Shown piece after piece: positions 2,904 through 63,448 of a DNA stretch of 64,000 nt. This stretch comes from an uncultured Thermoplasmata archaeon (GTDB lineage Archaea; Thermoplasmatota; Thermoplasmata; UBA10834), in contig CAWBDD010000021.1 in NCBI GenBank assembly GCA_963787465.1, positions 80,598-144,597 on the forward strand, in the 5' to 3' direction. Each line of letters begins with the position of its first letter. Position 1 is the stretch's first letter. The notes beneath the pieces were generated by a model. It was not told the DNA's origin and did no database searches. It saw nothing but the letters and a program-made list of their open reading frames with translations. The position numbers and the translations under genes are program-made.

Positions 2904-3925
2904 TTGTATTTGACCCGAACGGATGGGGACTGGCAGGGGCGATTCAGGGCGCCCAGGACCAAACCATTCAAGATGGTGGACGACATCACCCTCGTTGACC
3001 TTAGGGGCATCCGCTGCCCAGAAGGAGACAATCGGATGGACATGGACGGTTTCCACGGGCCTGGTCCTGAAAGGGACTGGAGCGAGGAGTTCTACTTCGA
3101 CTTCTACGACAGGGAGAGGGACGTCTGCGGGCACATGCGCATCGCCATGTGGCCTAACCTCCACGAGAAGGAGTTCCAGTTCTTCCTGCTCATGCCCGAC
3201 GGGTCAGTGATCGGCGGCAGGGACACGGCTCCCGTATGACGGACAGAGGCTCGAGGCGAAGGGACTCGCGTTCACGAGGACCATGCCCCAGAGCGTCTGG
3301 CGCATCACCATGAACTCGAACATGCCAAGGATAGGCGGAAGGCTCGAGAAGCGCAGCCATGTCGAGATGGACCTGACATTCACCGGGCTCAACGAGACGA
3401 TCGCCTCAGAGGAACGCCTACCTGGCCGTCCCGGAGCAGGGATCTCCCACGCGCAGCAGTTCGGAGGCGTGGCGGGCAAGCTCTCTACCGGGGTCGAGGA
3501 GTTCGCGATCGACACGTTGGGGCACAGGGACCATTCATGGGGGACGTGCGACCTCGGGCCGCTCGACATCCAGGTTGACGCTCACATGCCAGTTCTCGAA
3601 GGACCACGCCTTCAGCGTCACCAGGTGCTCGACGGAGGGGGGAGACGCCGATTCTGGCTTCGTCCACGCCTCTGGGGCGAACCGGGCCGTGTCCTCGATG
3701 GCGATGAAGACCAACTCAGGGCCGGACGGGAGTCCCAAGTCCATGGAGGTGGCCGTGACGGACGCATCGGGCGAGGTCCACAAGGCCGTCGCGATGGTCC
3801 TGAAGGTCACGAAGACGCAGATGGCCGGGGCGAGGGACCACACCATCCACAAGATGCTCGTCCGGTGCTCGACCGAGGGAAAGGTCGGCTACGGGATGGC
3901 TGAGTTCTGGGCGATGCCTCCGTAG
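2904..3925 (+). pseudogene. Hypothetical protein broken across three successive reading frames (frame 0 -> 1 -> 2). It looks like a frameshifted gene or pseudogene.
   Basis: Three abutting ORFs (2904-3239, ~3235-3570, 3575-3925) each stop where the next frame opens. Composition is protein-like in each segment and junk beyond each shift. Confidence 0.3.
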
Positions 3926-27427: not shown

Positions 27428-27451
27428 GCTCCCCATAATCAAACCACTTGT

Positions 27452-30442: not shown

Positions 30443-30511
30443 GGGAGGGTCGAATCGATCAGACCGCCCGGCATCCGTCCGCATGCACGTCTTGGTCCCG
30501 GCTCGTGGGCT

Positions 30512-45194: not shown

Positions 45195-46786
45195 CCGAGG
45201 AGAGGTTCGAGCCGAGCATAGTGGCCTTCTGCTGCAACTGGTGCTCCTACGCCGGGGCCGACCTGGCGGGCGTGAGCAGGATGCAGTACCCACCGAACGC
45301 GAGGGTCATCAGGGTCATGTGCTCCGGCAGGGTCGAGCCGTACTTCATACTCAGGGCGCTGGAGCTCGGGGCCGACGGTGTCCTGATCGCAGGGTGCCAC
45401 ATAGGCGACTGCCACTACATCTCCGGGAACGTCGAGGCCGAGAAGCGCATGGCCGCGACCAAGGAGGTCCTCGACAGGCTCGGCATAGGCAAGGACCGGA
45501 TGCGCCTGGAGTGGATCTCCGCGTCCGAGGGCCAGAAGTTCGCCCAGACGATGAAGGAGTTCACGGAGCAGATCAGGAAGCTCGGGCCCAACCCGCTGGC
45601 GGGGAAGCTCCCGGAGAAGAAGCCGTCCGCTGACCTCAAGAAGAAGGTCGACCAGCTCATAGAGGACACCGGGGCGTTCGACTGCGTGGAGTGCGGGAAG
45701 TGCACCACGGTCTGCCCTGTGGCCAAGTACGACCCCGACTTCGCCCCCAGGACCATCGTCCTGAAGTCCATGGAGGGGCAGGTGAGCGAACTGTCCAAGG
45801 GCAAGGACATCTGGACGTGCGTCACCTGCGAGCAGTGCAACTCGATGTGCCCGTACAAGGTGGACTACTCGGGCTTCATACGCGGGCTCAGGACCGAGGC
45901 GGCCGCCTGCGACAACGTGCCCGTGTGCTCCCAGGGCGGGCTCATGCAGGGGGTCATGAGGGTCCAGGCGAACGGGTCCTTCAAGCAGGACAGGCTCACG
46001 TGGCTGACCCCTGACCTGAAAGTGGCGGACAAGGGGGACTACTTCCTGTTCACGGGTTGCGCGACATACTTCGACGCCATATTCAGGGACCGCCAGGAGC
46101 TCAAGCTCGCCGACATACCCCGCGCGGCGGTCAAGATCATGAACAGGGCGGGCATCGTCCCGGTCGTCAGCAACGACGAGGTCTGCTGCGGGCACGACCT
46201 CAACTGGACCGGGGACGAGGACGGCATGATGAAGCTCATGAAGAAGAACGTGGACCTGATCAAGGCGTCGGGGGCGAAGAAGGTGGTCTTCCCGTGCCCG
46301 GAGTGCCTCAGGACCTTCAACATGGACTACCAGGACTTCCTGGGCGACTTCGACTTCGAGCTGGTGCACATATCCCAGCTCGTGGACGACCTCCTGAAGG
46401 AGGGGAAGATCAAGCTCAAGAAGGGCGTCTCCAAGGTCACGTTCCAGGACTCCTGCAGGCTCGGGAGGCACATGGGCATCTACGACGAGCCCAGGGCTGC
46501 CATCAGGGGGACCCAGGCCGAGGTGGTCGAGATGGACAACACCAGGGACAAGGCCCTGTGCTGCGGCGTCAGCGCGTGGGCGACCTGCGACGAGGTCTCG
46601 AAGAAGATGCAGGTCGACAGGCTCAAGGAGGCGAAGCGGACCGGCGCCGAGTGCCTGGTGACCGGGTGCTACAAATGCCTGATACACCTTAACTGTGCGC
46701 AGGTCAACAAGACCCAGGTTCCCAAGGAACAGATAGACATACCGATCAAGGATCTGAGCGTGTTCATCGCGGACGCGCTGGAATGA
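45191..46786 (+). CDS. MvhD-HdrC-HdrB triple-domain fusion protein
   Basis: N-terminal MvhD domain ([15 protein letters not shown]...CHIGDCHY). Two ferredoxin motifs (CVECGKCTTVCP, CVTCEQCNSMCP). C-terminal CCG domains (CCGHDL, LCCGVSAW). ATGA overlap with the upstream gene. Confidence 0.8.
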   Translation: MTEERFEPSIVAFCCNWCSYAGADLAGVSRMQYPPNARVIRVMCSGRVEPYFILRALELGADGVLIAGCHIGDCHYISGNVEAEKRMAATKEVLDRLGIGKDRMRLEWISASEGQKFAQTMKEFTEQIRKLGPNPLAGKLPEKKPSADLKKKVDQLIEDTGAFDCVECGKCTTVCPVAKYDPDFAPRTIVLKSMEGQVSELSKGKDIWTCVTCEQCNSMCPYKVDYSGFIRGLRTEAAACDNVPVCSQGGLMQGVMRVQANGSFKQDRLTWLTPDLKVADKGDYFLFTGCATYFDAIFRDRQELKLADIPRAAVKIMNRAGIVPVVSNDEVCCGHDLNWTGDEDGMMKLMKKNVDLIKASGAKKVVFPCPECLRTFNMDYQDFLGDFDFELVHISQLVDDLLKEGKIKLKKGVSKVTFQDSCRLGRHMGIYDEPRAAIRGTQAEVVEMDNTRDKALCCGVSAWATCDEVSKKMQVDRLKEAKRTGAECLVTGCYKCLIHLNCAQVNKTQVPKEQIDIPIKDLSVFIADALE

Positions 46787-47196
46787 CAACTCGAGAAAGT
46801 GATAGGATGACACCGAACAAGGCCCAACAGCAGCCGCCGAAGGCTGACGAGAGGTTCGTGCTGATAGAGCTGTCCTGCAAGGACAAGAAGTGCTCGCCTT
46901 GCACGTACCCGAACTGCCAGAGGTTCGCGACCGAGCAACCCAAGAAGAAGCCGTACGAGACGCGCTTCTCGAGGATGTTCGAGGTCAAGAAGCCCATGAC
47001 CACGCCCGAGGCACCCAGGGAACGCCTGGTGCTCGTGGAGCTGTCCTGCAAGGACAAGAAGTGCTCGCCTTGCACATACCCGAACTGCCAGAGGTTCGCC
47101 AAGGCGACCACCCAGGAGAGGAAGAAGGCGCCTTTCAAGGTGAAGATCACGGAGATCGAGAAGGGCACGGACGTCTCGAAGCTCCTCGGCAAGTAG
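46783..47196 (+). CDS. Small tandem-repeat Cys-cluster protein (2 x C-x4-C-x2-C-x4-C), last gene of the hdr module
   Basis: 137 aa. The 27-aa block ER(F/L)VL(I/V)ELSCKDKKCSPCTYPNCQRFA occurs twice. The underlying 66-nt DNA repeat (46870-46935 versus 47040-47105) differs by one base. The start overlaps the upstream stop (ATGA). Confidence 0.55.
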   Translation: MTTRESDRMTPNKAQQQPPKADERFVLIELSCKDKKCSPCTYPNCQRFATEQPKKKPYETRFSRMFEVKKPMTTPEAPRERLVLVELSCKDKKCSPCTYPNCQRFAKATTQERKKAPFKVKITEIEKGTDVSKLLGK

Positions 47197-47206
47197 CAGG
47201 CTGGAG

Positions 47207-47219
47207 TGCTTAACGAATG
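47207..47219 (+). promoter_or_regulatory. Second copy of the TGCTTAACGAATG motif, 181 nt upstream of the start of the second hdrA-like operon
   Basis: See the entry at 37928-37940. A CATATG-ACGCA-CATATG inverted repeat also lies at 47346-47362. Confidence 0.4.
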
Positions 47220-47399
47220 AGAGCATGGGCGGCAGGGGAGAGCGACCGGAATCGTCGCGTGACCAACGAAACAGATAAAGCGATGAATTGGTTACCGAAG
47301 GGCGCGCCTAGGCCACCGGGCCGGGCCTGCTTGACATCTGCCGGTCATATGACGCACATATGTGAACAGGGAGTATCTAGTAATCGTGGAGGTCTTTGA

Positions 47400-48698
47400 A
47401 TGGAGAAATCGGTCTTGGTTATAGGAGGGGGTGTCGCGGGCATACAGGCCGCGCTCGACCTCGCTGACAAGGGGATAATCGTTCACCTGGTCGAGAAGAC
47501 CCCGAGCATCGGCGGGAGGATGGCGCAGCTGGACAAGACGTTCCCCACGAACGACTGCTCGATCTGCATCCTCGCGCCTAAGATGGCGGACTGCTTCAGC
47601 CACCCGAACACCAACGTCATCACCTACGCCGAGGTCGTCGGTGTCGAAGGGAAGGTAGGGAGCTTCAAGGTCAAGGTGCTCAAGAAGGCCAGGTACGTCG
47701 ACGAGACGAAGTGCACTGGCTGCGGCGAGTGCCTCGAGAAGTGCCCGAGCAAGGTCGTCAACGACTGGGAGCAGGGGCTGACCAACAGGAAGGCCATCTA
47801 TGTCCCGTTCATGCAGGCGGTCCCGAGGGTCATGACCATCGACAAGGACAACTGCCTCATGCTCACGAAGGGCAAGTGCGGGAACTGCAAGAAGGCCTGC
47901 AAGAGGGAGGCCATCAACTACGAGATGAAGGACCAGATCCTGGAGCTCGAGGTCGGCTCCATCATAGTCGCCACCGGGTTCGATGTCTGGAACCCGACGA
48001 CATCCACCGAGTACGGCTACGGCAGGTACCCCAACGTCTTCACGGCGATGGAGTACGAGCGCATGATCAACGCCGCCGGGCCGACCCACGGGCACATCAA
48101 GAGGAGGTCCGACGGCCAGCGCCCGATGAGGATGGCGTTCATCCAGTGCGTCGGGTCGAGGAACCCGACGACCGGCCACCCGTACTGCTGCGGCGTCTGC
48201 TGCATGCACTCCACGAAGGAGTCGATGCTGGCGCGGGAGCACTACGACGACATCGAGTCGACCATATTCTACAAGGACATGAGGGCCTGCTCGAAGGGCT
48301 TCTGGGAGTACGTGGAGCGCGCGAAGCGCGACTACGGTGTCAGGTACATCAACTCGGACGCCACGGTGCAGGAGAACGCTGACAACCACAACCCGATCGT
48401 GGTCTACGACGTGGGCGGAAGACAGCAGTCGGAGGAATTCGACCTGGTCGTCCTCGCCACGACACTCGTCCCCAAGAAGGAGACCCTGGAGCTGGCGAAG
48501 CTGCTGGGAATCAAGGCCGACGAGTTCGGATTCCTGGAGAGCGCCGACAGGATACTGGCGCCAGGGACCACCATCGTGCCCGGCATATACCTGGCCGGAT
48601 ACTGCGCAGGACCGGCGGACATACCGGAGAGCGTCGCTCAGGGCTCGAGCGCGGCGGCCAAGGCTGCCGAGGCAATCGCCCAGGCCGGAGGAGGATGA
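47400..48698 (+). CDS. Truncated HdrA-like flavoprotein (FAD/thioredoxin-reductase-like core plus inserted ferredoxin; lacks the HdrA N- and C-terminal cluster domains)
   Basis: VIGGGVAGIQAALDLA, CTGCGECLEKCP, and the FIQCVGSRN...CCGVCCMHS region. It corresponds to the N-terminal half of the fused 42156-45194 protein. Confidence 0.75.
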   Translation: MEKSVLVIGGGVAGIQAALDLADKGIIVHLVEKTPSIGGRMAQLDKTFPTNDCSICILAPKMADCFSHPNTNVITYAEVVGVEGKVGSFKVKVLKKARYVDETKCTGCGECLEKCPSKVVNDWEQGLTNRKAIYVPFMQAVPRVMTIDKDNCLMLTKGKCGNCKKACKREAINYEMKDQILELEVGSIIVATGFDVWNPTTSTEYGYGRYPNVFTAMEYERMINAAGPTHGHIKRRSDGQRPMRMAFIQCVGSRNPTTGHPYCCGVCCMHSTKESMLAREHYDDIESTIFYKDMRACSKGFWEYVERAKRDYGVRYINSDATVQENADNHNPIVVYDVGGRQQSEEFDLVVLATTLVPKKETLELAKLLGIKADEFGFLESADRILAPGTTIVPGIYLAGYCAGPADIPESVAQGSSAAAKAAEAIAQAGGG

Positions 48699-48702
48699 TC
48701 CG

Positions 48703-50572
48703 ATGACCACCCATGACAAGGCGGAGAAGCCAAGGATCGGAGTGTTCGTCTGCCACTGCGGCTCGAACATCGGCGGGTTCGTCGATGTGCCGTCCGTCGC
48801 GGAGTATGCCAAGACCCTCCCCGACGTCGCGTTCGCGACCGACAACCTGTACACCTGTGCCGAGGACGGCCTCAGCAGCATCAGGGAGGCCATAAGGAAG
48901 CACAACCTCAACAGGGTCATAGTCGCCAGCTGCACGCCCAGGACCCACGCGCCCCTGTTCCAGGCCACCTGCGAGGGGGCCGGGCTGAACAAGTACCTGT
49001 TCACATTCGTGAACATCAGGGAGCACTGCTCCTGGGTCCACATGAAGGAGAAGGACCTGGCCACGAAGAAGGCCAAGGACCTCATCAGGATGGGGGTCGC
49101 GCGGGCGCGCCTGCTCATCCCCCAGGAGGAGGTCAAGGTCGACGTGGAGCCAGTCGCGCTCGTCATCGGCGGAGGAATAAGCGGCATGACCGCGGCGCTG
49201 TCGATGGCGGAGATGGGCTTCCCGGTGCACCTCGTCGAGAAGGAAGGCGAGCTCGGTGGCTTCGTCAAGATACTCAACAACCTGTACGTGACGGACAAGA
49301 CCGCCGCGGACACGATCAAGCCGCTGGTCGACAAGGTGATGAGCGCACAAGAAGATCAAGGTCTACACCGGCTCGACCGTCAAGAGCGTCGAGGGCTTCA
49401 TCGGCAACTACGAGATAGTCATAGGCAAGAAGGGAGCCGACGACGTCAAGGCCAAGGTCGGCACGATCGTCGTGGCCACCGGGGCGCTCGAGTTCATCCC
49501 CGAGGGGCTGTACGGGTACAACCAGTACCCCAACGTCGTGACGCTGACGGAGTTCGAGATGCTCTGCAGGAAGAAGACCCTGCCGAAGCTGAAGAACGTG
49601 GCGTTCATCCAGTGCGTCGGGTCCAGGGGACAGGTCAAGTCGTACTGCTCCAGGATCTGCTGCAATGTCTCGATCAAGAACGCGGTCAACATCGTCGACA
49701 ACTACGACAACATGCTCGGGGCGGCCGAGAAGCTCGGCACGGTGATCGAGAAGGTCCCGGTCGAGAAGAAGGCCACAGACGAGATACTGGAGCGCAGGCG
49801 CAGGAGGCGCGGGCGCGACGCTGGGACCGACGAGGGCGGGGCCGAGGAGGTCAAGCTCGGACCGTCGGAGAAGATCGAGGTCACCGTCTTCAACAGGGAC
49901 GTGATGGCGTACGGCGTCGAGCACGAGCTGCAGTTCAACAAGGCGAGGGAGAAGCGCGTCAAGTTCGTGAGATACACGACAGACCACCTCCCGAAGGTCT
50001 TCATGGAGGGCAACCAGCTGATGCTGACCTACTTCCACGAGACCCTGAAGCTCGAGAGGACGATGCCGGTCGACATGGTCATACTGGCGACGCCGCTAGT
50101 GGCGCAGCCGGACGCGGACCAGCTGTCGAAGCTGCTCAAGGTGCCGCTCGGCCAGGAGGGGTTCTTCCTCGAGGCGCACGTCAAGCTCAGGCCAGTGGAC
50201 TTCGCGACGGACGGCATATACTGCGCCGGCACCTGCCGCGGACCCGCGGACATAACCGAGTGCGCGTACCAGGGGAGCGCGGCGGCCTCGAGGGCCGCCA
50301 TCCCGATGGCGAAGGGGTACGTGCAGGCCGAGGCGATCACCAGCGTGGTCGACGAGACCAAGTGCACCGGGTGCGGGACCTGCATGCAGGTCTGTCCGTA
50401 CGGCGCGCTCAGGAAGAACGACAAGGGCTACGCCGAGGTCATAGTGGCCGCGTGCAAGGGATGCGGCTGCTGCGGGGCGACCTGCCCCGAGGGCGCGATA
50501 ACGATGACGAACTACACCGATGCACAGCTCCTGGCTGAGGCCAGGGCGGCCCTCGAGGAGGGATTGCAGTGA
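48703..50572 (+). CDS. hdrA: HdrA paralog with an apparent +1 frameshift near 49343-49349. As read, it is in two frames: 48703-~49347 and ~49349-50572.
   Basis: N-terminal RIGVFVCHCGSNIGG and VIGGGISGMTAAL. After ...DKVMSA the frame turns to junk, and the authentic HdrA continuation (KKIKVYTGSTVKSVEGFIGNYEIVIGKKG...) is in the +1 frame. The C-terminal ferredoxin motifs are intact. Confidence 0.6.
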
Positions 50573-51372
50573 GTGACCAGGTCAAGAAGGAGCAGAGCGG
50601 GGAGTTCGAGCCCAAGGTCATCGGGTTCCTCTGCAACTGGTGCTCCTACGCAGGGGCGGACCTCTGCGGGGTCAGCAGGTACCAGTACCCGACCAACATC
50701 CGCGCGGTGAGGGTCATGTGCTCGACCAGGATCAGCCCGCACCTCGTCCTCGACCTTTTCAGGGCTGGGGCGGACGGCATCCTGCTCGGTGGCTGCCACA
50801 TAGGCGACTGCCACTACATATCCGGGAACTACTACACCGAGAAGCGCGTCAGGCTCATGAAGAAGCTGCTCGAGGAGAGCGGCCTGGAGCCGGAGCGCCT
50901 CAGGCTGGAGTGGGTCTCGGCCTCCGAGGGCGAGAAGTTCTCGAAGGTCGTGAGCGAGTTCACGGAGCACGTGAGGAAGCTCGGCCCCAGCAAGGTCAAG
51001 AGCGACCCGGTCCAGAGGGACAAGGTCGCGGCCGCGGACGCCGCAGGCGAGACCTTCAGGCTGAGGGCGCTGGTCGGCAAGGAGCTCAACCTTGTCCAGA
51101 AGGGGAACGTGTACGACAACAAGCTGGACCCGGTCGAGCTGCAGAAGATCATCGACCACGCGACCGAGGAGGAGTTCGAGCGCGCGCTCATACTGGAGCT
51201 GAGCCGCTCGAAGCCCAGGTCGGTCAAGGAGCTCGGACAGATCATGGACGTGCCGACGGACAAGGTCCTGAGGCACATAGTGGCGCTCCGTCAGAAGAAC
51301 ATGATAACGATGGAGCACCCGGACGGGTTCACACCCACATACAAGACCATAGAGATCGGAGGTGAGCACTGA
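50569..51372 (+). CDS. MvhD domain protein fused to a C-terminal winged-helix-like domain
   Basis: N-terminal [14 protein letters not shown]...CHIGDCHY (MvhD). The C-terminal ~90 aa (ALILELSRSKPRSVKELGQIMDVPTDKVLRHIVALRQKNMI) is homologous to the free-standing protein at 54867-55257. GTGA overlap with the upstream stop. Confidence 0.75.
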   Translation: MSDQVKKEQSGEFEPKVIGFLCNWCSYAGADLCGVSRYQYPTNIRAVRVMCSTRISPHLVLDLFRAGADGILLGGCHIGDCHYISGNYYTEKRVRLMKKLLEESGLEPERLRLEWVSASEGEKFSKVVSEFTEHVRKLGPSKVKSDPVQRDKVAAADAAGETFRLRALVGKELNLVQKGNVYDNKLDPVELQKIIDHATEEEFERALILELSRSKPRSVKELGQIMDVPTDKVLRHIVALRQKNMITMEHPDGFTPTYKTIEIGGEH

Positions 51373-54300
51373 TGGCTACCACGGACAAGATCGGGGCAGT
51401 AATGGTCGTCGGTGGCGGCATCTCGGGGATGCAGTCGGCCCTGGACCTAGCGGACCAGGGGTTCAAGGTCTACCTGATCGAGAAGCAGCCGAGCATCGGC
51501 GGCGTCATGGCCCAGCTCGACAAGACCTTCCCGACCAACGATTGCTCCATGTGCATCATGGCCCCGAAGCTGGTCGCCACCGGCAGGCACCACAACATAC
51601 AGCTGATCACGAACGCCGAGATAGCGATAGTGGATGGCCAGGCAGGCAACTTCACCGTCACGGTGAAGCAGCGCGCCTTCAGGGTCGACACGACCAAGTG
51701 CACGGGCTGCGGCAGCTGCGCGCAGAAGTGCCCGATCGAGACCGCCGACGAGTACAACGAGGGCACGAAGGTGCGCAAGGCGATATTCGTGCGCTACCCG
51801 CAGGCGGTCCCGCTGGTGTACAGCATCGACCCTGAGAAGTGCATCGGTTGCGGCATCTGCGCCGAGGAGTGCAAGGCCAAGGCCGTCGCGTACGACCAGA
51901 AGGAGAGGGTCATCGAGATCAACGTCGGATCGATCATCGTCTCGCCCGGCTTCGAGGAGTTCAACGCGAGGCTGAAGAGCGAGTACGGGTACGGCGTCTA
52001 CCAGAACGTCGTGACGAGCATCGAGTTCGAGAGGATGCTCAGCGCGACCGGGCCGTACTTCGGGTCCGTGCTCAGGCCCTCGGACGGCGACATACCGGAG
52101 AAGATAGCCTTCATCCAGTGCGTCGGCTCCAGGGACGAGCATGTCGGCAACGAGTACTGCTCCAGCGTGTGCTGCATGTACTCCATCAAGGAGGCCGTCA
52201 TCGCGAAGGAGCACGGCGGGAACATCAAGCCCACCATCTTCTTCATGGACATGAGGGCCTTCGGCAAGGAGTTCGACGAGTACTACAACCGCGCCCAGAA
52301 GGAGTACGGGATCAGGTTCGTCAGGTCCAGGATCGCATCCGTGGTCGAGGACCCGAAGACCAAGAACCTGATGCTCAAGTACACCGGAGAGGGCGAGCCC
52401 AAGGAGGAGGCGTTCGACCTCGTCGTGCTGGCGGTCGGGCTGAGGCCCGCTGCGGACGCCGAGGCGCTGAGCCGGATCATGAAGTTCAGGCTCAACGACG
52501 ACGGCTTCTGCCAGACGGGGACCTTCGCCCCGGTCGAGACATCGCGTCCGGGCGTCTACGTCAGCGGCGCGTTCTCCGCGCCCAAGGACATACCGATGAC
52601 CGTCGCAGAGGCGAGCGGCGCGGCCGCGAAGGCCGCCTCCGACATCGCCGGCGCCAGGGGCACGCTCGTCACGAAGAAGGAGTACCCCAAGGAACTCGAC
52701 GTCACGGGCCAGGAGCCCAGGATCGGGGTCTTCGTCTGCCACTGCGGCATCAACATAGGCGGGGTCGTGAAGGTCCCGGAGGTCGCGGAGTACGCGAAGA
52801 CGCTGCCGAACGTGGTCTACGCCGAGCAGAACCTGTACACCTGCTCCCAGGACGCGCAGGAGCGCATCAAGGAGAAGGTCAAGGAGCACAAGCTCAACAG
52901 GGTCGTGGTCGCGAGCTGCACGCCCAGGACGCACGAGCCCCTGTTCCAGAACACCATCAGGGAGGCGGGACTGAACCCGTACCTCTTCGAGATGGCGAAC
53001 ATCAGGGACCAGTGCTCGTGGATACACATGCACGAGCCGAAGGCCGCCACGAAGAAGTCCAAGGACCTCGTGCGCATGGCCGTCGCGAAGTCGAGGCTCC
53101 TGGAGCCGCTCGAGAACCTCGAGATCAACGTCAACCAGGCCGCCATGGTCATTGGCGGCGGGCTGAGCGGGATGACCGCGGCCCTGGAGCTCGCGAAGCA
53201 GGGCTTCCAGGTCCACCTGGTCGAGAAGGAGAAGCAGCTCGGGGGCAACCTCGGAAAGCTGCACTACCTGCCGACGGGCGACGACCCGAAGGCGCACCTC
53301 GACGCGATGGTGAAGGAGGTCATGTCCAACCCGCGGATCAAGACGCACCTCGGGACGACCGTGAAGACCATCGAGGGGTACGTCGGGAACTTCAAGACCG
53401 ACCTCGTGAACGGCCAGAAGGTCGAGCACGGCGCCGTCATCGTGGCCATCGGCGGCCAGGAGTACAAGCCGGAGGGCGAGTACCTCTACGGGAAGAACAA
53501 GGGCGTCATGACCCTCCTCGAGTACAAGGACAAGTTGTCGAAGGGCGAGGTCAAGGGCGGGACGACCGTGTTCATCCAGTGCGTCGGGTCCAGGGAGGAC
53601 AAGCACCCGAACTGCTCCCGCGTCTGCTGCACCGGCACGATGACCGCGGCGATCAAGACCAAGGAGAAGGACCCAGCGTCCACGATATACGTGCTCTACC
53701 GCGACATCAGGACCTACGGCTTCAGGGAGAAGTTCTACAAGGAGGCCAGCCGGAAGGGCGTGACCTTCATCAGGTTCGAGGACGGCACCAAGCCGAAGGT
53801 GGAGGAGAAGGGCGGGAAGCTCGAGGTGACCGTGAAGGACGAGGACACCGGCAAGGATGTCATCCTCAGGCCGGACCACCTGGTCCTCGCTTCGGGGACG
53901 AGGCCGTCCCACGATATCGAGACGCTCGCGCCGATGCTGAAGGTGCCCGTCACGCAAGGAGGGATTCTTCCTCGAGGCGCACATGAAGCTCCGGCCGGTC
54001 GAGTTCGCCACCGAGGGCGTGTACCTGGCGGGCCTCGCGCACGGACCCAAGTTCGTGGACGAGAGCATCGGGCAGGCGCTCGCGGCGGTGTCGCGCGCCA
54101 TGACCGTCCTGTCGAAGACCACCCTCGAGGCGGAGGGCATAGTCGCGAGCATAGAGGAGACCCTCTGTGACGGCTGCGGCATATGCGTCCCGACCTGCGA
54201 GTACAAGGCCCTCGATGTCCTCCCGGACAAGAAGGACCCGAAGAAGAAGATCGTCGAGGTCAACGTCGGCCTGTGCAAGGGCTGCGGCGCCTGCGTGGGC

Positions 54301-54410
54301 GCCTGCCCGTCCGGCGCCCTGGACACAGAAGGGCTTCAAGGACGAGCAGATCTACGCGATGATCGATGCCGCGCTCGAGGACGACGCGCAAGAGACAGGA
54401 GGTGAAGTAA
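51372..54410 (+). CDS. hdrA: HdrA paralog (third module). It is complete in its first ~860 aa, but the C-terminal part requires at least two +1 corrections (~53958 and ~54328). It is possibly continuous with the downstream MvhD.
   Basis: VVGGGISGMQSALDLA, RIGVFVCHCGINIGG and a second GG motif MVIGGGLSGMTAAL (a tandem-type HdrA). After ...MLKVPVTQ the track frame becomes P/R/G junk, while EGFFLEAHMKLRPV... continues in +1. After ...ACPSGALDT it shifts again, to KGFKDEQIYAMIDAALEDD.... Confidence 0.6.
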
Positions 54411-54866
54411 TGAGCACTGAGGCGCACGGGCACAAGCAATGGACATGCGACTGGGGACGGGTTCGAGCCGAAGATACTCGTCTTCTGCTGCAACTGGTGC
54501 TCCTACGCCGGGGCCGACCTGGCAGGGGTCAGCAGGCTGCAGATGCCGCCGCACTTCAGGGTGATCAGGGTCATGTGCTCCGCGAGGGTCGACCCCGAGT
54601 TCGTCCTGCGGGCGTTCCAGAAGGGCGCGGACGGCGTGCTCGTCGCTGGGCTGCCACCCGGCGGACTGCCACTACATCGGAGGGAACTACAGGACCCGCA
54701 GGAGGATCGCCCTGCTGAGGATGCTGCTGCAGCAGTTCGGGTTCGACCCGGGCAGGCTGAAGCTGGAGTGGGTCTCGGCCGGGGAGGGCGAGAAGTTCCA
54801 GAAGACCATCACCGAGTTCACGAACACTATCATGGAGCTCGGACCGTCTCCGATGAGAGGTGGTGA
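54410..54866 (+). CDS. mvhD: MvhD (third module), interrupted by two apparent +1 frameshifts at G-runs (~54453 and ~54648)
   Basis: [15 protein letters not shown] | [65 protein letters not shown] | [31 protein letters not shown]...MRGGE*, reconstructed by removing one G at each site. Confidence 0.55.
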
Positions 54867-55257
54867 ATGAGGATGCCGGCGAACGAGGCCAGGATCAGGG
54901 CGGCGCTCAGGACCGTGGAAGGGGAGCGCGTCAGGTGGCTCCTGGGCAAGAAGGGGCCACTGACCACGATCGGGCAACGTGTTCGGCGAGACCATCACCG
55001 ACGCGAGGTACAGCTTCATACTGCAGAAGGCGGCAGGGGTCGAGCTGGACCGGAACCTCCTTCTCATCGAGATGGAGCGGGGACCGAGGACCGTGCACGA
55101 GCTGCACGACGCCACGAGGCTCCCGAAACCCGAGATCGTGAAGCACATCATCGCCCTGAAGAAGTGGAGGCTGGTCGAGCAGGTGGGCATGAAGGACCGG
55201 TCGCCGCAGTACATGGCCGTAGCGCGCAAGGCATCGGATGAGAGAGAGGTGAGCTGA
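54867..55257 (+). CDS. Free-standing winged-helix-like protein homologous to the C-terminal domain of the MvhD fusion at 50569-51372. It contains an apparent +1 frameshift at ~54972-54976.
   Basis: MRMPANEARIRAALRTVEGERVRWLLGKKGPLTTIG | NVFGETITDARYSFILQKAAGVELDRNLLLIEMERGPRTVHELHDATRLPKPEIVKHIIALKKWRLVEQVG... It starts directly after the mvhD stop. Confidence 0.45.
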
Positions 55258-55259
55258 AC

Positions 55260-56276
55260 ATGGCTGACAAGATCAAGATCGCACAGTACTGGGGAGCAGG
55301 ATGCGGCGGGTGCGACGTCGCGCTCCTGGACATCGACGCCAAGATACTGGACATCCACGCGATAGCGGAGGTCGTCTTCTGGCCGATCGGCTTCGACGGG
55401 AAGCTCCACGAGATCGAGGCGATGCCCGACAAGAGCATCACCGTATCGTTCTACAACGGCGCGATAAGGAACTCCGAGAACGAGCACGTCGCGAAGGTGC
55501 TGAGGCAGAAGTCCGTCATAATGATCGGGTTCGGCTCGTGCGCCTGCTTCGGCGGCACGCCCGGCCTGGCCAACGTGACGAACAGGAAGGAGGTCTTCCA
55601 GACCGTCTACAAGGACACGCAGTCGACGGACAACCCGAACTTCGTGACGCCCCAGACCCACACCAAGACCAAGGACGGCGAGCTGGAGCTGCCGGAGTTC
55701 TACGACACGGTCAAGATGCTCGACGAGGTCGTCGACGTCGACTACTTCATGCCCGGCTGCCCGCCGACGGTCAACCTGATCGCGCTGGCGGTCGACGCCG
55801 TCGTGAAGCACGTCAAGGAGGGCGCGCCGCTGCCCCCGAAGGGCACGATCATAGCCTCCGACAAGACCCTGTGCGACGAATGCAAGAGGGAGAGGGTCGA
55901 GAAGAACAGGAGGATCGAGAGGATCTACCAGGCCTACGAGATCACGCCCGACCCGAAGAAGTGCCTCCTGGACCAGGGGATCATATGCATAGGGCCAGCG
56001 ACGCGCGCCGGATGCGGCGCGATGTGCCCGAACGCGCAGATGCCCTGCAGGGGCTGCATGGGCCCGACGAGGGCCGTCACGGACCAGGGCGCGAGCATGC
56101 TCTCCGCGGTCTCGTCGCTGCTGAACATCACGGATTCGGAGTCAAAGCTAAGTGAGGAGCAGATAATGGAGCTCATGATGCAGGTCAAGGACCCGCTCGG
56201 GACCTTCTACGCTTTCACGCTGCCGAAGTCCCCGATCAAGCGCGTCGTGACCGAGAGAGGCAAGAGGAAGGTGTGA
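55260..56276 (+). CDS. mvhG: [NiFe] hydrogenase small subunit MvhG (F420-non-reducing hydrogenase)
   Basis: N-terminal WGAGCGGC cluster motif, plus medial and distal Fe-S cluster Cys patterns (GSCACFGG, CxxC...CRGC). Confidence 0.85.
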   Translation: MADKIKIAQYWGAGCGGCDVALLDIDAKILDIHAIAEVVFWPIGFDGKLHEIEAMPDKSITVSFYNGAIRNSENEHVAKVLRQKSVIMIGFGSCACFGGTPGLANVTNRKEVFQTVYKDTQSTDNPNFVTPQTHTKTKDGELELPEFYDTVKMLDEVVDVDYFMPGCPPTVNLIALAVDAVVKHVKEGAPLPPKGTIIASDKTLCDECKRERVEKNRRIERIYQAYEITPDPKKCLLDQGIICIGPATRAGCGAMCPNAQMPCRGCMGPTRAVTDQGASMLSAVSSLLNITDSESKLSEEQIMELMMQVKDPLGTFYAFTLPKSPIKRVVTERGKRKV

Positions 56277-57796
56277 TCACCGTGGCTGGACCTATCATCA
56301 ACGACACCACTGTCAAGACAAAGGAGAGGAAGATCACCATCGACCCGATCACGAGGCTCGAGGGCCACGGCAAGATCGAGATATTCCTGGACGAGGCCGG
56401 CGATGTCGCCGACGCGTACCTCCAGGTGCCCGAGCTCAGGGGCTTCGAGAGGTTCTGCATAGGCAGGCACGTGCAGGAGCTGCCGGTCCTGACCAACAGG
56501 CTCTGCGGCGTCTGCCCGGCGGCGCACCACCTGGCGTCGACGAAGGCCCTGGACGCGGTCTTCAACGCCGAGCCACCGCCCACGGCGAAGAAGCTGAGGG
56601 AGCTCTTCTACATGGGCCAGTACACGCACAGCCACATCGCGCACTTCTACGCCCTCGCGGCGCCGGACTTCGTGCTCGGGCCGTCCGCCCCGGCCAACAA
56701 GAGGAACGTCCTCGGCGTGGTAGACGCCGTCGGCGTGCCGATCGGGGCCGAGGTCATAAAGCACAGGTCTTACGGTCAGAAGGTGCAGGAGATCGTGGGC
56801 GGCAGGGCGACACACCCCGTGTTCGGCCTCCCCGGAGGCGTGAGCAAGCAGATCAGCGAGGAGGAGCGCGCCCAGATGGAGGAGATGGCCAAGAGCTGCG
56901 TCGAATTCGGAAAGTTCACGGTCAAGCTCTTCCACGACGTCGTCCTCGCGAACAAGGACTACCTGGGACTCATACTCAACCAGGACGCGTACTACCTGGA
57001 GACCTACTACATGGGCATGGTCGACAAGAACAACAAGAGCAACTTCTACGACGGCGATATCCGCGTGGTCGACCAGACAGGTAAGGAGTTCGTGAGATTC
57101 AAGCCGAGCCAGTACCTCGACGTCATCTCAGAGCACGTCGAGCCCTGGACATACATGAAGATGCCCTTCCTGAAGAAGGTCGGCTGGAAGGGGTTCGTCA
57201 CCGGACCGTCGAGCGGCATATACAGGGTCGGGCCCCTGGCCAGGATCAACGTCTGCACCGGGTACACGACACCGCTGGCGCAGGCCGAGTACGAGGCCTT
57301 CAGGAAGACCATGAAGGACCTGGGAGTGACAGGGCCGGTGCACCACACCCTGGCGTTCCACTGGGCGAGGGTCATCGAACTGCAGCACGCGGCGGAGCGC
57401 ATGCTCGAGCTCGCGAGCGACAAGACCATCACGAGCGCCGACATCAGGGGCAAGTTCAACCCGCCCACGGAGGGCGTCGGCATCGTCGAGGCCCCGAGGG
57501 GCACGCTCATCCACCACTACGCCTCGGACAAGGACGGCATCTGCACCAAGATCAACATGGTCGTCGCCACGACCAACAACTACGCGGCCATCAACACCAG
57601 CGTGAAGCAGGCGGCGAAGGCGCTGATCAAGGGCGGCATGGTGTCCCAGGGCCTCCTGAACAAGGTCGAGATGGCCTTCAGGTGCTACGACCCGTGCAAC
57701 TCCTGTGGCACGCACGCGCTGAACGGCGGGCCCGCGCTCGAGGTCACCGTCAAGAGGAAGGACGGCACCGTCGTCGAGAGGCAGAGAAACTTCTGA
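56273..57796 (+). CDS. mvhA: [NiFe] hydrogenase large subunit MvhA
   Basis: N-terminal RLCGVCP and C-terminal DPCNSCGTH Ni-Fe ligand motifs. GTG start overlapping the mvhG stop. Confidence 0.9.
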   Translation: MITVAGPIINDTTVKTKERKITIDPITRLEGHGKIEIFLDEAGDVADAYLQVPELRGFERFCIGRHVQELPVLTNRLCGVCPAAHHLASTKALDAVFNAEPPPTAKKLRELFYMGQYTHSHIAHFYALAAPDFVLGPSAPANKRNVLGVVDAVGVPIGAEVIKHRSYGQKVQEIVGGRATHPVFGLPGGVSKQISEEERAQMEEMAKSCVEFGKFTVKLFHDVVLANKDYLGLILNQDAYYLETYYMGMVDKNNKSNFYDGDIRVVDQTGKEFVRFKPSQYLDVISEHVEPWTYMKMPFLKKVGWKGFVTGPSSGIYRVGPLARINVCTGYTTPLAQAEYEAFRKTMKDLGVTGPVHHTLAFHWARVIELQHAAERMLELASDKTITSADIRGKFNPPTEGVGIVEAPRGTLIHHYASDKDGICTKINMVVATTNNYAAINTSVKQAAKALIKGGMVSQGLLNKVEMAFRCYDPCNSCGTHALNGGPALEVTVKRKDGTVVERQRNF

Positions 57797-57859
57797 ATGG
57801 AGCTTACGTGAGGGAGACCCCCTCACGGAATCACACTTTTCCCAGCCCAGGCAAGACCC

Positions 57860-58348
57860 ATGACACAACCGCTTCAGGCATGCACGCGCGCGCTCGTTCT
57901 GGGCGTCGGCAACCCCATACTCTCGGACGACGGGGTCGGCATACACGTCGCCAGGGAGCTCGGCGCCAGGGGCCTGCCAGGCGTCACGGTGGAGGAGCTG
58001 CCCGCGGGTGGGCTGGAACTCCTCGACCTGGTCCTCGACCACGACGTCGTCGTGATAGTCGACGCGATACAGACATCCGGGGGCAAGCCGGGCCAGATAC
58101 ACGAGCTCGAGGAGAGGGATTTCGAGAGGGCGGTCCACGGGTCGTCCCCGCACGGGGTGAACATCGCCACGGCACTTGCGCTCGGCAGGAAACTCGTCCC
58201 CGAGAGGATGCCTCACACTGTCAGGTATGTCGCGATAGAGGCGGCGGACCTGGTCAACGTCTGTGAGAAGCTCACGCCCCCGGTCCAGGAGGCGCTGCCG
58301 AAGGCGGTGGCGCTCGTCGAGAGGATCCTGGGGCTCAGCAGATCCTAG
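57860..58348 (+). CDS. Hydrogenase maturation endopeptidase (HycI/HyaD/FrhD family)
   Basis: LVLGVGNPILSDDGVGIHVAREL motif and ...HGSSPHG..., 162 aa. Confidence 0.8.
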   Translation: MTQPLQACTRALVLGVGNPILSDDGVGIHVARELGARGLPGVTVEELPAGGLELLDLVLDHDVVVIVDAIQTSGGKPGQIHELEERDFERAVHGSSPHGVNIATALALGRKLVPERMPHTVRYVAIEAADLVNVCEKLTPPVQEALPKAVALVERILGLSRS

Positions 58349-59390
58349 GCACCGGGTCCCCGATCGGGGGCTCCACCACCCTCTTCCCGCCGGTGTGCGT
58401 CTCCATCATTACCCCGTTGATCTCCTTGGACGCCTCGCCGACTATCGCGGCCCTGGCCCCCTCAGGGGTGGACCTCAGGGCCTTGAGGACCGACTCCGCC
58501 TGGTCCGGCACGACCGCGAGGACCGCCTTGCCCTCGTTGCCGATCTCCAGGGGGTCGATGCCCAGCATCTCGCACGCGGAGATGACCGCGTCGTCCATCG
58601 GGAGCCGCTCCTCGGCGATCCTGATCCCGACGCCCGACTTCTCGGCCCATTCGTTCAGCAGGTTGGCCACGCCCCCCCTCGTCGGGTCCTTCATGGCGGT
58701 GACCCCGCCCGCCTGCAACGCCTTTGCCAGCATCTTGTTGAGCGGGGCGGCATCGCTCCTGACGGTCGTCTCGAACCCGTAGCCCTCCCTGAAGGACAGG
58801 AGCGCGACGCCGTGGTTGCCTATCGGACCTGAGACGATGATCACGTCGCCCTCGGCGACGGCGGAGTCGTTCGGCCAGTTGAAAGCGAACTTCCTGGAGG
58901 CGCGGACCATCTGGAGGTTGTGGTCGAGGTGCGGGGACCTGCGCCCGATCCCGCTCGTGTTGATGAAAAGGCCGTCCACCGCGCCCTTCTCCACGACCTT
59001 CGTGTCACCGGTGACTATGTTCACGCCAGCCCCCTTGGCGGTGGTGGAGATGCTCTTCATGATCCGGTGGAGGTCCTCAGTGGCGAACCCCTCCTGGATG
59101 ATCATCGCGCAGGAGAGAGCCCGCGGCTCTGCCCCCATCATGGAGACGTCGTTGACGGTGCCTGCGACGCTCAGGACGCCGATGTCGCCTCCTGGGAAGA
59201 ACAGCGGCTTGACGGTGTACGAATCGGTGGTGAAAGCGATCCCATCGACTATGGCGGCATCGTCGAGGGCACCGAGAGGTATCTCACCGAACTGGTGGTC
59301 CAGCTCGTTGAGGACGAACTCGCGTATGAACTCCTGCATGCGCTCGCCCCCGGCCCCCTGCGCCAAAGTCACCTTGGCCATTCTCGACAC
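58335..59390 (-). CDS. hypE: Hydrogenase maturation factor HypE
   Basis: PurM-like AIR-synthase-related fold. The C-terminus ends ...PVPRIC, the HypE PRIC signature with the terminal Cys. Confidence 0.85.
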   Translation of the reverse strand: MSRMAKVTLAQGAGGERMQEFIREFVLNELDHQFGEIPLGALDDAAIVDGIAFTTDSYTVKPLFFPGGDIGVLSVAGTVNDVSMMGAEPRALSCAMIIQEGFATEDLHRIMKSISTTAKGAGVNIVTGDTKVVEKGAVDGLFINTSGIGRRSPHLDHNLQMVRASRKFAFNWPNDSAVAEGDVIIVSGPIGNHGVALLSFREGYGFETTVRSDAAPLNKMLAKALQAGGVTAMKDPTRGGVANLLNEWAEKSGVGIRIAEERLPMDDAVISACEMLGIDPLEIGNEGKAVLAVVPDQAESVLKALRSTPEGARAAIVGEASKEINGVMMETHTGGKRVVEPPIGDPVPRIC

Positions 59391-59494
59391 CAGCTGGCCT
59401 TCGAAATGGCTACAGCTAATAATACCTTTGTCCCGTCACGCGGGGTGGCGCTTCCGAGGGATATCTTGATTACGACGCATGGGGCTCGGAGTGC

Positions 59495-60101
59495 GATGCT
59501 CTCGGCGGTCGTCCTATCGGGCGGATCGGGAACGCGAATGGGGGCGGAGAAGGGACTCCTAAGGCTGGGAGGGAGGCCGCTCGTATCGATTGTGGTCGGT
59601 ACGATGTGGTCGTTGGCAGATGAGGTCGTGGTGGCGGTCGCGCCCGGCATGTCGTCTGAGTACAGAGCGACACTGGGGAGTCGACCGTCGATTATCGAGG
59701 ACCGGGCTTCCGGGATAGGCCCCCTGGAAGGGCTCGCTGCCTCTTTCGCTGTTGCGAAGGGGGATATCGTCGTCACGAGCCCCTGCGACACACCGTTCCT
59801 CAGTAGGGAACTCATCCAGCTCATCGCGGGCAGCATAGGCGACGCGGACATGGCCGTGCCGAGGGTCGGTGGACTTCTCGAACCCCTGCACGCAGCCTAC
59901 AGGAGGGAGAGATGCCTCCGCGCGTTCGAGGAGACCATGGCGAGAGGCGAGCGCAAGATAGTCACGGCGTTCTCCGGGCTCGACGCAGTCATGGTCGACG
60001 AGGAGTTGCTAAGGACCGTCGACCCTGAGTTACGGAGCTTCTGGAACCTGAACACGAGGAACGACCTTGCACGTGCAGAGAGGATGGCCGAACCGGGGTG
60101 A
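59495..60101 (+). CDS. mobA: Molybdenum cofactor guanylyltransferase MobA
   Basis: LSGGSGTRMGAEKGLL (MobA LAGGxSxRMG motif), ~200 aa. Confidence 0.7.
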
Positions 60102-60111
60102 CCTGCGCGCG

Positions 60112-60753
60112 TCATCCACCTTCGAGCTTCTTCCTCATATCCTTGAGATTCTCCGTGGCGCCTCCAATGTTCATCTCTTCGATGAAGTGATCGGGCGACG
60201 TCGTCCTCAGGTAGTAAGTGCCCGCGGCGGCGACGGCGAGACCGGCGAACGAATCGAAGAAGAGGTCCAGCATGGTGTCGTCAAGCGAGTATTGCAGGTG
60301 CGTGCCCGTGAGCGCATCCATGGCATACTCGATCACCTCCCAGAACACGCCTATTGCCATGGTGAACATCACGATGAAGACGGCGAGGAATGCTGGTGGG
60401 AGACGGATGCTGACAACGTACTTGTCGATGGAGACGACGACCACGAACCCGAGGGCTGCCATGAGCGACGATGTCATCGCGTGGGTCAGATGGTCCCACC
60501 CTGCGACATCATCGTAGAAGCCAGAGTATCCACCGACCACGTGCAGGAATAGAGCGAGGACAAGCCAGAAGTTCAGTCCGGCAGGCAGCACCATCCTGAG
60601 ATCGCGCCTCAGTATGCTCGGGACCCCGCTTATGAAAAGGGAGAACAGAGCAGCTAGCAGCCATGTCATGTTGCCGGTGAGAGGCCCCGCGATGGCGACA
60701 CCCAGCATGCCCAGCTGCATAGCTCGCGAGATGATCTTCAGCCTCTTCTTCAT
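60112..60753 (-). CDS. Integral membrane protein (5-6 TM), tandem paralog of 60750-61415
   Basis: Shared blocks FWEVIEYAMDALTG (here) versus FWKVFEYVGGLVTG (neighbour). Confidence 0.55.
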   Translation of the reverse strand: MKKRLKIISRAMQLGMLGVAIAGPLTGNMTWLLAALFSLFISGVPSILRRDLRMVLPAGLNFWLVLALFLHVVGGYSGFYDDVAGWDHLTHAMTSSLMAALGFVVVVSIDKYVVSIRLPPAFLAVFIVMFTMAIGVFWEVIEYAMDALTGTHLQYSLDDTMLDLFFDSFAGLAVAAAGTYYLRTTSPDHFIEEMNIGGATENLKDMRKKLEGG

Positions 60754-61415
60754 TCTATCACCTTTCGCGGACGCGTGAAACCGAGGGCTCGTTTGCGAGA
60801 ATCAGACAGCGCCTTCATGTACTGGCCGTACACGACCCCCATCAGCGCACCGCCTACAAATGTCCACACGAAGAAGATCATGACATCGGCGTTGTCCCCG
60901 ATCGTCGGGTCCCCGGTCACTAGACCCCCGACATACTCGAACACCTTCCAGAAACCGGCCGCGGCGACCGTGAACATGAAGACGAAGAACAAGGCGAACG
61001 ACCTGTTCATCCTGACGTCCGTGTACAATTGGAGCTCGACGGTGAGAAGGAAACCGACGGTCGCGAACGCCAGGGAGAATGCGATCGCGGTCAGGTCGTC
61101 CCACCACATCGGGGCACCCTCCGCAGGGTCCCATGCAGAGGAGATGTGCAGGAACACGGGGATGACCAGGATCAGCGCCATCTCCCAGGGGAGCGCCTTG
61201 AACGGGTCCCTCGTCATGATGACCGGCAGGATCAGCAGGCAAAGGGCAGAGACGCCGAAAGCCGCCCACATGATGTCCAGCCTGACAACGAGATAGACCG
61301 TCGAGAAGAACAGTGCAAGGCTCGATATCCAGGACAGCTCGGCCTCGAGGACCCTTCGTGGACTTCGGACCGTTGGCCCGTCGCCCGAGGGCGACGGACC
61401 GGCATCACCCTGCAT
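60750..61415 (-). CDS. Integral membrane protein, tandem paralog of 60112-60753
   Basis: Same topology and conserved blocks as the neighbour. Its stop overlaps the neighbour's start. Confidence 0.55.
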   Translation of the reverse strand: MQGDAGPSPSGDGPTVRSPRRVLEAELSWISSLALFFSTVYLVVRLDIMWAAFGVSALCLLILPVIMTRDPFKALPWEMALILVIPVFLHISSAWDPAEGAPMWWDDLTAIAFSLAFATVGFLLTVELQLYTDVRMNRSFALFFVFMFTVAAAGFWKVFEYVGGLVTGDPTIGDNADVMIFFVWTFVGGALMGVVYGQYMKALSDSRKRALGFTRPRKVIE

Positions 61416-61462
61416 ATCCGGGCTTCGAAGGACTTGGACACTATTAATCGCTGACGGAGGGG

Positions 61463-63342: not shown

Positions 63343-63448
63343 CGCTGAGGGGGAGATTTGAACTCCCGAGGCGCAAAGCGCCACGAGCTTGCTAGCATGG
63401 CAACCTGAGTTTCCAGGCTCGCGCCTTACCGGGCTGGGCCACCTCAGC
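63343..63448 (-). tRNA. tRNA-Ser(GGA), class II, with a ~21-nt canonical intron
   Basis: Acceptor GCTGAGG/CCTCAGC+G. Anticodon stem CGAGC/GCTCG with loop CTGGAA|intron|A. Long variable arm GGCGC-TTT-GCGCC. T-arm GGGAG-TTCAAAT-CTCCC. A TTTAAATA TATA box lies 25 nt upstream (63471-63480 on minus). Confidence 0.65.

Follow-up and report, generated by a model that had tools for sequence, protein, structure and literature searches.

Results

A hydrogenase-linked hdr locus with interrupted reading frames

The window analyzed here (the whole stretch of 64,000 nt, with every feature below on the forward strand) lies on a contig of 334,356 nt from an uncultured Thermoplasmata archaeon and contains a hydrogenase-linked heterodisulfide reductase module with the gene order hdrA-mvhD-wHTH-mvhG-mvhA-hycI, referred to as module C. 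The hdrA gene (heterodisulfide reductase subunit A; 51372..54410) extends from an ATG at 51372 to a TAA at 54408-54410 and includes three extra bases; 861 codons are unbroken before the frame is lost, and removal of the three bases yields a protein of 1011 aa, the best match of which is a 1013-aa HdrA family protein (94% identity, 100% coverage). The uncorrected HdrA ORF of 932 aa, junk tail included, is the deposited public protein P0123. The mvhD gene (54410..54870; FlpD family, PF02662) contains two extra bases and encodes 152 aa when restored, the length of all members (7/7) of the MvhD protein cluster. Restored MvhD matches the FlpD profile at positions 1-123 of 123 with 189 bits, while the uncorrected ORF covers only 24-63 of 123. 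A small gene for an ArsR-like winged-helix protein (wHTH; 54867..55257) follows, with one extra base and a restored length of 129 aa, and a 92-aa fragment ORF of it is public protein P0352. The family match of the wHTH protein is borderline (HTH_5, 22.1 bits; cut-off, 22); its counterparts in relatives are 127 to 129 aa long, one of them bearing the JGI name ArsR family regulator. Downstream, mvhG (55260-56276; [NiFe] hydrogenase small subunit, 338 aa) and mvhA (56273-57796; [NiFe] hydrogenase large subunit, 507 aa) are unbroken and present as public proteins, both identified by Pfam matches on a syntenic relative. Two genes outside the module are also interrupted: a paralogous hdrA that encodes the C-terminal half of a split HdrA (48703..50572; one extra base, 622 aa when restored) and a DUF7065/DUF7064 gene (2973..3925) spread over three frames by two extra bases.

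Position and context of the extra bases

Frame breaks were traced by three-frame translation and a codon-usage Viterbi frame path, and the locus was aligned in MAFFT with 22 orthologous loci plus three close relatives that share 87-92% nucleotide identity with it. Translation, Viterbi path, and alignment all confirmed the observation of an earlier sequence-only reading that the HdrA, MvhD, and wHTH frames are broken, with P/R/G-rich junk from ~53954 onward while conserved sequence runs on in the +1 frame. That reading had counted five breaks; six were found (53954, 54321, 54384, 54440, 54648, and 54975), together with a seventh extra base at 55257 in the wHTH/mvhG spacer. The single event it had placed at ~54453 resolves into two, one at 54384, which had been missed, and one at 54440. 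One event at ~54453 was rejected as an alternative placement, as it needs an in-frame HdrA-MvhD fusion that is present in no relative.

With the extra base bracketed, the window reads GTC AC[G]C AAG at 53954, where relatives have ACC or ACG and then AAG, with no run extended; CCC T[G]G ACA at 54321, where relatives have CTG ACC and G has become GG; and GAC G[A]C GCG at 54384, where relatives have GAC GCG CAC, again with no run extended. Removal of the base at 54384 restores both the HdrA C terminus (EDARKRQEVK, then the stop) and the stop/start junction with mvhD, as in relatives. The extra base at 54440, CAA [T]GG ACA, falls in the N terminus of MvhD and extends no run. At 54648 the sequence is GCT [G]GG CTG C, as compared to GCA/GCT GGC/GGT TGC in relatives, and can be read as GG to GGG or as a C after GGG; at 54975 it is ATC GGG [C]AA CGT, as compared to ACC GGG AAC GTG. 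The seventh base affects no reading frame, lying in the 2-nt spacer from the wHTH stop to the mvhG ATG (55257; TGA[A]CATG, TGACATG in three relatives). The earlier statement that all breaks occur at short G/C runs holds for 54321, 54648, and arguably 54975, and fails for 53954, 54384, and 54440. The rest of the window had been regarded as essentially clean, yet there are further +1 breaks in the paralogous hdrA at 49344 (GTG ATG AG[C]G CAC) and in the DUF7065/DUF7064 gene at 3226 and 3565 (ACA[C]GG and CTC[G]ACA). Only three to four of the extra bases extend a run.

Taking out seven of these bases produced four full-length ORFs (1011, 152, 129, and 622 aa) with lengths and stop/start overlaps as in relatives. 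For HdrA, MvhD, and wHTH, restored lengths and gene junctions match all 25 relatives compared, and the restored frames contain neither in-frame stop codons nor deletions (0 of each).

The extra bases are private to the window, each aligned with a gap in every other sequence. At five sites all 22 orthologous loci are gapped at the window's extra base, and at all eight sites within 46.9-57.6 kb the gap is present in three of three close relatives. The comparison for the seven clustered bases was made only with same-genus relatives (87-92% identity) and the 22 remoter orthologues, all of which are without them. Every window-private one-base indel is an insertion (10/10, deletions 0), and seven of the ten events fall inside 1,304 nt of the 64,000-nt window, a concentration that had already been described as striking and is far beyond chance (~6e-8 by approximation; 0 of 200,000 simulations). 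The cluster has no excess of window-private substitutions (4.0-7.8% per 500 nt, 5.6% overall), indicating that only the indel channel is affected. Private mismatches near the insertions exhibit a weak pile-up (P 0.004-0.16, depending on radius), part of which is explained by variable protein tails.

Selection on the restored frames

The sequence-only reading had offered two explanations, pseudogenization of a redundant third hdr module or localized homopolymer indel error. The restored frames evolve under purifying selection, with dN/dS of 0.09-0.10 for HdrA and MvhD and 0.19-0.21 for wHTH. On the window's own branch, 8 nonsynonymous and 20 synonymous changes follow the first break, as compared to 28 and 33 before it, and the probability of at least 20 synonymous changes among 28 under neutrality is 9e-8. 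No relaxation of selection on this branch was thus found by dN/dS and branch counts, tests that are blind to mutations younger than the ~0.4-2% divergence from same-species contigs. These values, together with the lack of stops and deletions, speak against pseudogenization. Nor is module C obviously a redundant copy, as it is the one with mvhG-mvhA-hycI directly 3′, in an arrangement that is intact and syntenic in every relative examined.

Same-species contigs and a shared error signature

Same-species contigs are without all three of the extra bases that they cover (3226, 3565, and 49344). The JGI contig L084 (98.46% identity) is without those at 3226 and 3565, its sole two gaps in 2.6 kb, and its DUF7065/DUF7064 gene is unbroken (316 aa). 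Contig L167 (97.9% identity) is without the base at 49344 and reads GTGATGAG-GCAC. Three more same-species contigs, L165 (97.96%), L168 (99.6%), and L169 (99.4%), are gap-free over 55391-61457, and the public, apparently short-read runs ERR4334725 and ERR4334726 contain a population 99.4-99.6% identical to the window. The Logan and JGI same-species contigs end before the cluster, L165 starting at 55391 and both Logan contigs at 57676. Searches for same-species sequence over 53.9-55.3 kb gave a best match of 86% with the HdrA C terminus; a metagenome scan with restored MvhD gave, among the matches listed, none above 90% identity; and MvhD and wHTH cluster members reach at most 95-96% amino-acid identity and are not of the same species.

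Two contigs of ENA assembly ERZ25039477 exhibit indels of the same kind. The related contig L083, which has a Flye-style name, contains 39 private one-base insertions as compared to 2 one-base deletions in 7.5 kb, and the insertions are mostly G or C and outside runs; no insertion site is common to L083 and the window. The same-species contig L167 bears at least three private insertions (41252, 41840, and 48313) as compared to a single deletion (43420), and these break genes that are unbroken in the window. The motif CAC[G]CAA is common to the window at 53954 and the private L167 insertion at 41840, a coincidence that is suggestive only. The 'NCBI, ENA' source label shared by L083, L167, and the window, together with an identical 531-aa protein, suggests that the window's contig belongs to the ERZ25039477 assembly or its project.

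Discussion

The extra bases are very likely errors in the consensus of the deposited metagenome assembly rather than mutations of the organism. The assembly process would leave private single-base insertions, mostly G or C and mostly outside base runs, and a 1.3-kb stretch resolved especially badly would gather seven of them, from which gene callers would then yield truncated fragments. The clustering may stem from locally reduced usable coverage, from micro-diversity among strains, or from reads cross-mapped between the three neighboring hdrA/mvhD paralogues. The sequencing platform was probably one of noisy long reads, for which consensus indels giving frameshifted gene calls in metagenome-assembled genomes (MAGs) are well documented (PMC9262707). 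Of the two earlier options, localized indel error is thus the better supported: the indels are assembly-private, all insertions, absent at the three sites with same-species coverage, and of the ERZ25039477 signature. The qualifier "homopolymer" does not stand, as most of the events are not run extensions.

One form of such an artifact is that the SNP alleles of co-assembled strains were both kept side by side in the consensus (e.g., ACG/ACC to ACGC, GGG/GGC to GGGC, CTC/CTG to CTCG, and TGAC/TGAA to TGAAC). Merging of this sort would explain why only insertions occur and, if the stretch varies among strains, why they cluster. When the extra base and its neighbor are taken as alternative alleles, two synonymous codons result at six of the ten sites, several of them matching states in relatives, and at 55257 TGA-A-C joins the A of L083 to the C of two other contigs (L080 and L082); the breaking off of short-read same-species contigs near the locus, at 55391 and 57676, also fits local micro-diversity. 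However, by a rough estimate ~45% of random insertions mimic the pattern, so that six of ten is not significant, and 54321 (G next to G) fits poorly. We regard merged alleles as a possible but rather doubtful source of the insertions.

Genuine and very recent pseudogenization would require that a burst of seven +1 insertions, left for example where repair synthesis was locally error-prone or as scars of end joining, inactivated hdrA, mvhD, and wHTH, and that the DUF7065/7064 gene and the hdrA paralogue were hit separately. The frameshifts are present in the deposited sequence, other hdrA/mvhD copies in the window might buffer the loss, and lesions young enough would escape the selection tests. 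However, neutral decay in Bacteria and Archaea is characterized by an excess of deletions over insertions, with insertion:deletion ratios of 0.07-0.9 (PMC2817411), and under these published ratios the chance of ten insertions in ten is at most 5e-4; an all-insertion record is the opposite of the bias in real prokaryotic pseudogenes. Stops, deletions, and an excess of nonsynonymous change are all absent, and a mutation shower should leave substitutions too, which the cluster does not exhibit. Same-species contigs lack the three events open to checking (3226, 3565, and 49344), and L167 and L083 each bear insertions of this type at sites of their own. Loss of mvhD with mvhG, mvhA, and hycI intact and conserved would be odd as well, since electrons travel between hydrogenase and HdrA by way of MvhD in the Mvh-Hdr complex. 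Pseudogenization of this kind is accordingly unlikely, and it is very unlikely that the seven clustered insertions are real, such that a +1 burst in one strain has just severed the hdrA-mvhD link and spared mvhGA. Were they real, they would constitute an unusual mutation shower made up of insertions only and suggest that repair in this archaeal lineage is prone to insertions in local patches; nothing here favors that.

Breaks that are all +1, each with the conserved protein restored exactly, are also what would be expected if programmed +1 ribosomal frameshifting or RNA-level base removal restored HdrA, MvhD, and wHTH during expression. Yet k-mer comparison found no motif common to the ten sites of the kind that a programmed shift or a systematic error linked to methylation might leave; the best 4-mers and 5-mers they share are matched by those of random site sets (P 0.57-0.87). 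The zero frame has no stop or known shifty codon at any site, no site is conserved among 25 relatives or in same-species contigs, all orthologues are single-frame, and the base at 55257 sits in a noncoding spacer. We know of no precedent for six recoding events in 1 kb, and recoding is extremely improbable as an explanation.

With consensus error as the preferred reading, the locus is a warning about data quality: a public MAG contig bears nine or more frameshifting extra bases within 64 kb. In automated annotation, HdrA is therefore truncated and MvhD and the regulator are fragmented, and a metabolic reconstruction built on such calls could wrongly score the hydrogenase-linked heterodisulfide reductase as lost from this Thermoplasmata lineage. 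With the corrected coordinates the genes can be repaired.

Comparison with known systems

The gene content resembles that of the MvhADG-HdrABC cluster, with hdrA (1011 aa, FAD and Fe-S domains), mvhD (FlpD), mvhG (Oxidored_q6), mvhA (NiFeSe_Hases), and a hycI protease in order, and the order hdrA-mvhD-mvhG-mvhA-hycI is present in about 25 Thermoplasmata and Methanomassiliicoccales MAGs. The locus differs in the small ArsR-like winged-helix gene between mvhD and mvhG. As in programmed +1 frameshifting (e.g., bacterial prfB), a +1 shift is needed for the full protein, but a conserved shift site, a zero-frame stop, a hungry codon, and conservation in orthologues are all lacking, and the sites number six within 1 kb, with a seventh in a spacer. 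The likeness to prokaryotic frameshift pseudogenes lies in 1-nt indels that interrupt ORFs with intact orthologues in relatives; in contrast to such pseudogenes, the locus has no deletion bias, stop codon, larger lesion, or dN/dS relaxation, and same-species contigs are intact at the testable sites. Classic nanopore indels fall in homopolymers, whereas the events here include no deletion and are mostly insertions outside runs. The pattern otherwise parallels that of consensus errors in long-read metagenomes: private single-base indels that split conserved genes and have no counterpart in independent same-species assemblies, a normal level of substitution, retained purifying selection, and a density that is uneven along the contig (PMC9262707). 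Frameshifted or truncated gene calls of this origin are what the IDEEL test quantifies and proovframe-type tools repair.

Organization of the hydrogenase-linked module

The window, from an uncultured Thermoplasmata archaeon, has a G+C content of 62.8%, and its closest relatives are MAGs labelled Thermoplasmata or Thermoplasmatota. A hydrogenase-linked module on the plus strand (51372-58348) comprises hdrA (ATG at 51372), mvhD (ATG at 54410), a small ArsR-like winged-helix gene (wHTH; ATG at 54867), mvhG (55260-56276), mvhA (56273-57796), and the hycI protease gene (57860-58348), all in the same orientation. The closest relatives keep the identical order from hdrA to hycI, and their products measure 1013, 152, 127-129, 338, 507, and 162 aa. 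Upstream lie hdrA/mvhD paralogues as well as hypF (33779-35986) and hypD (36622-37707), the latter two preceding ∼20 kb with several tandem hdr-type modules (38000-58350). Within this stretch, hdrA copies, each with an mvhD copy, start near 38145, 42150, 47400/48703, and 51372, and mvhG, mvhA, and hycI come only after the last of the modules.

Other features of the window include a fluoride riboswitch on the minus strand (1068-1131; Rfam RF01734, 45.5 bits, gathering score 34), which precedes small ORFs on that strand at ∼420-1042. A 106-nt tRNA match on the minus strand (63343-63448), found by Rfam and missed by ARAGORN, is probably an intron-containing archaeal tRNA. The interval 27000-30450 has lower G+C (0.57-0.60), little or no codon-usage signal, and no Pfam matches for its long ORFs; it could be noncoding or foreign DNA.

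Single-base insertions interrupt hdrA, mvhD, and wHTH

Upon three-frame translation, the HdrA frame became P/R/G-rich after ∼53954 while the next frame held the conserved sequence, a pattern repeated to 54975, and a codon-usage Viterbi path gave identical frame switches without intervening stops. When window 53800-55300 was aligned by MAFFT to 22 orthologous loci, the bases at 53954, 54321, ∼54390, 54647, and 54970 each faced a gap in all 22. Finer placement was obtained from three closer relatives, L080 (87% nucleotide identity), L081, and L082 (both 92%), against which the window-private bases fall at 53954, 54321, 54384, 54440, 54648, 54975, and 55257, plus 49344. The base at 55257 lies in the wHTH/mvhG spacer, and that at 49344 is the one private extra base of a paralogous hdrA (48703-50572); this gene encodes the C-terminal half of a split HdrA, with the N-terminal half at 47400-48698. 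On the basis of these private bases, the breaks described in the sequence-only reading are present in the sequence, but they number six, plus one spacer base, rather than five. What had been taken as a single event at ∼54453 is in fact two, at 54384 and 54440: removal of the former yields an HdrA end of ...ARKRQEVK* at TAA 54408, which overlaps the mvhD ATG by one base, an arrangement close to that of every relative, and removal of the latter yields an MvhD N terminus (14 residues, not shown) close to ...HGHSGGDGFEPK in the protein P0135. Nor are all sites at short G/C runs, as had been proposed; a G run is lengthened only by 54321, 54648, and arguably 54975, and the bases at 53954, 54384, and 54440 lengthen no run. 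The breaks belong to the public record: a 334,356-nt NCBI+ENA contig encodes a public 932-aa HdrA ORF with a junk tail (P0123) and a 92-aa wHTH fragment (P0352).

The remainder of the window, previously considered essentially clean, contains further +1 breaks at 3226, 3565, and 49344. A frame scan flagged a DUF7065/DUF7064 gene (2973-3925) in three pieces (frames 2, 0, and 1), which match DUF7065 21-59, DUF7065 146-182, and DUF7064 13-123. In a 98.46% identical JGI contig the gene is whole (316 aa), and exactly two gaps separate the two sequences, i.e., the window's extra C at 3226 (ACA[C]GG) and extra G at 3565 (CTC[G]ACA). With these, the window's total comes to one extra spacer base and at least nine +1 frame breaks, 10 of 10 being insertions; its coding DNA yielded no private one-base deletion. 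The reported dense clustering holds, with seven of the 10 extra bases in 1,304 nt (∼6e-8 under a uniform model).

Restored frames are under purifying constraint

Deletion of the bases at 49344, 53954, 54321, 54384, 54440, 54648, and 54975 gave four ORFs, complete and properly terminated, of 622, 1011, 152, and 129 aa. The FlpD model matched restored MvhD end to end (1-123 of 123; 189 bits), as compared to positions 24-63 only for the uncorrected ORF. Nei-Gojobori dN/dS for the restored frames, window versus L080, L081, and L082, was 0.09-0.10 for HdrA, 0.09-0.10 for MvhD, and 0.19-0.21 for wHTH, judged to be in the range of intact neighbor genes (0.03-0.16). When substitutions on the window branch were polarized by ten outgroup orthologues, 28 nonsynonymous and 33 synonymous changes were assigned to the 861 codons upstream of the first break, and eight and 20, respectively, to the 431 codons downstream. 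At a neutral synonymous share of 0.233, the probability of at least 20 of 28 being synonymous is 9e-8; a pseudogene phase, if the downstream sequence had one, was therefore too short to measure. Substitutions private to the window were no more frequent in the break cluster than elsewhere.

Error profiles of sister and same-species contigs

Two contigs of the ENA metagenome assembly ERZ25039477, which share the "NCBI, ENA" source label with the window's contig, exhibit an insertion-dominated error profile. The first, L167 (contig_70672; 9.9 kb), is 97.9% identical to window 40115-50007 and encodes an identical 531-aa MvhD-HdrC/B fusion protein. It reads GTGATGAG-GCAC at 49344 and therefore lacks the window's extra C, and it has private indels of its own (+G 41252, +G 41840, -C 43420, and +C 48313) that split genes whole in the window and other cluster members. 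The second, L083 (contig_83967; related species, 85% identity), carries 39 private one-base insertions versus two one-base deletions in 7.5 kb, mostly G/C, mostly outside runs, and none at the window's sites; its indel density is ∼1 per 150 nt, and its gene calls are broken into small ORFs. Every error-prone assembly thus carries a distinct private set, mostly of +1 insertions outside runs, in genes intact elsewhere, which is the behavior of noise rather than inheritance.

Same-species short-read-like contigs showed no gaps over 55391-61457 (L165, 97.96%; L168, 99.6%; L169, 99.4%), and no same-species short-read contig covering window 50-55.4 kb was found; none of the same-species sequences obtained spans the break cluster. 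The JGI contig L165 starts at 55391, inside the locus, and both same-species Logan contigs (ERR4334725 and ERR4334726) start at exactly 57676; such ends hint at local strain diversity or paralogue trouble. L081 (GCA_025457845.1, JALOTO010000084.1) has private deletions of 66, 35, 71, and 32 nt versus the window, L080, and L082, which truncate its own paralogous hdrA, mvhG, and mvhA and are probably another assembly fault. In the related contig L166 (JGI 3300043305; 831-1846), mvhG is called in two pieces (197 and 72 aa) and may therefore carry a frameshift or gap.

Origin of the extra bases

Genuine gene decay, the pseudogenization option of the sequence-only reading, which the selection tests would miss if very recent, is considered improbable. 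Decay would be expected to bring stops and substitutions, and none were seen; dN/dS is low, and the module that it would strike is hydrogenase-linked and kept in every relative. Kuo and Ochman found deletions to be more numerous than insertions in each of their sets, bacterial or archaeal (insertion:deletion ratio 0.07-0.9; PMC2817411), and under such a bias 10 insertions of 10 have P ≤ 5e-4. Programmed +1 frameshifting is excluded for practical purposes: no motif is common to the sites, orthologues conserve none of them, and one of the extra bases is noncoding.

The deletion bias of real decay, the lack of a motif, and documented long-read indels instead argue that the extra bases are very probably an assembly artifact and no biological feature, in favor of the indel-error option raised earlier; the private insertions, the insertion-dominated sister contigs, and intact selection point the same way. 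The platform was probably one of noisy long reads, and the clustering of the bases might reflect a local coverage drop, reads cross-mapped between the three modules, which are paralogous, or strain microdiversity in which two SNP alleles were merged into one insertion. Frameshifted gene calls caused by residual indels have been documented for long-read assemblies and MAGs (PMC9262707). The sole import of the finding is a warning on annotation of this MAG.
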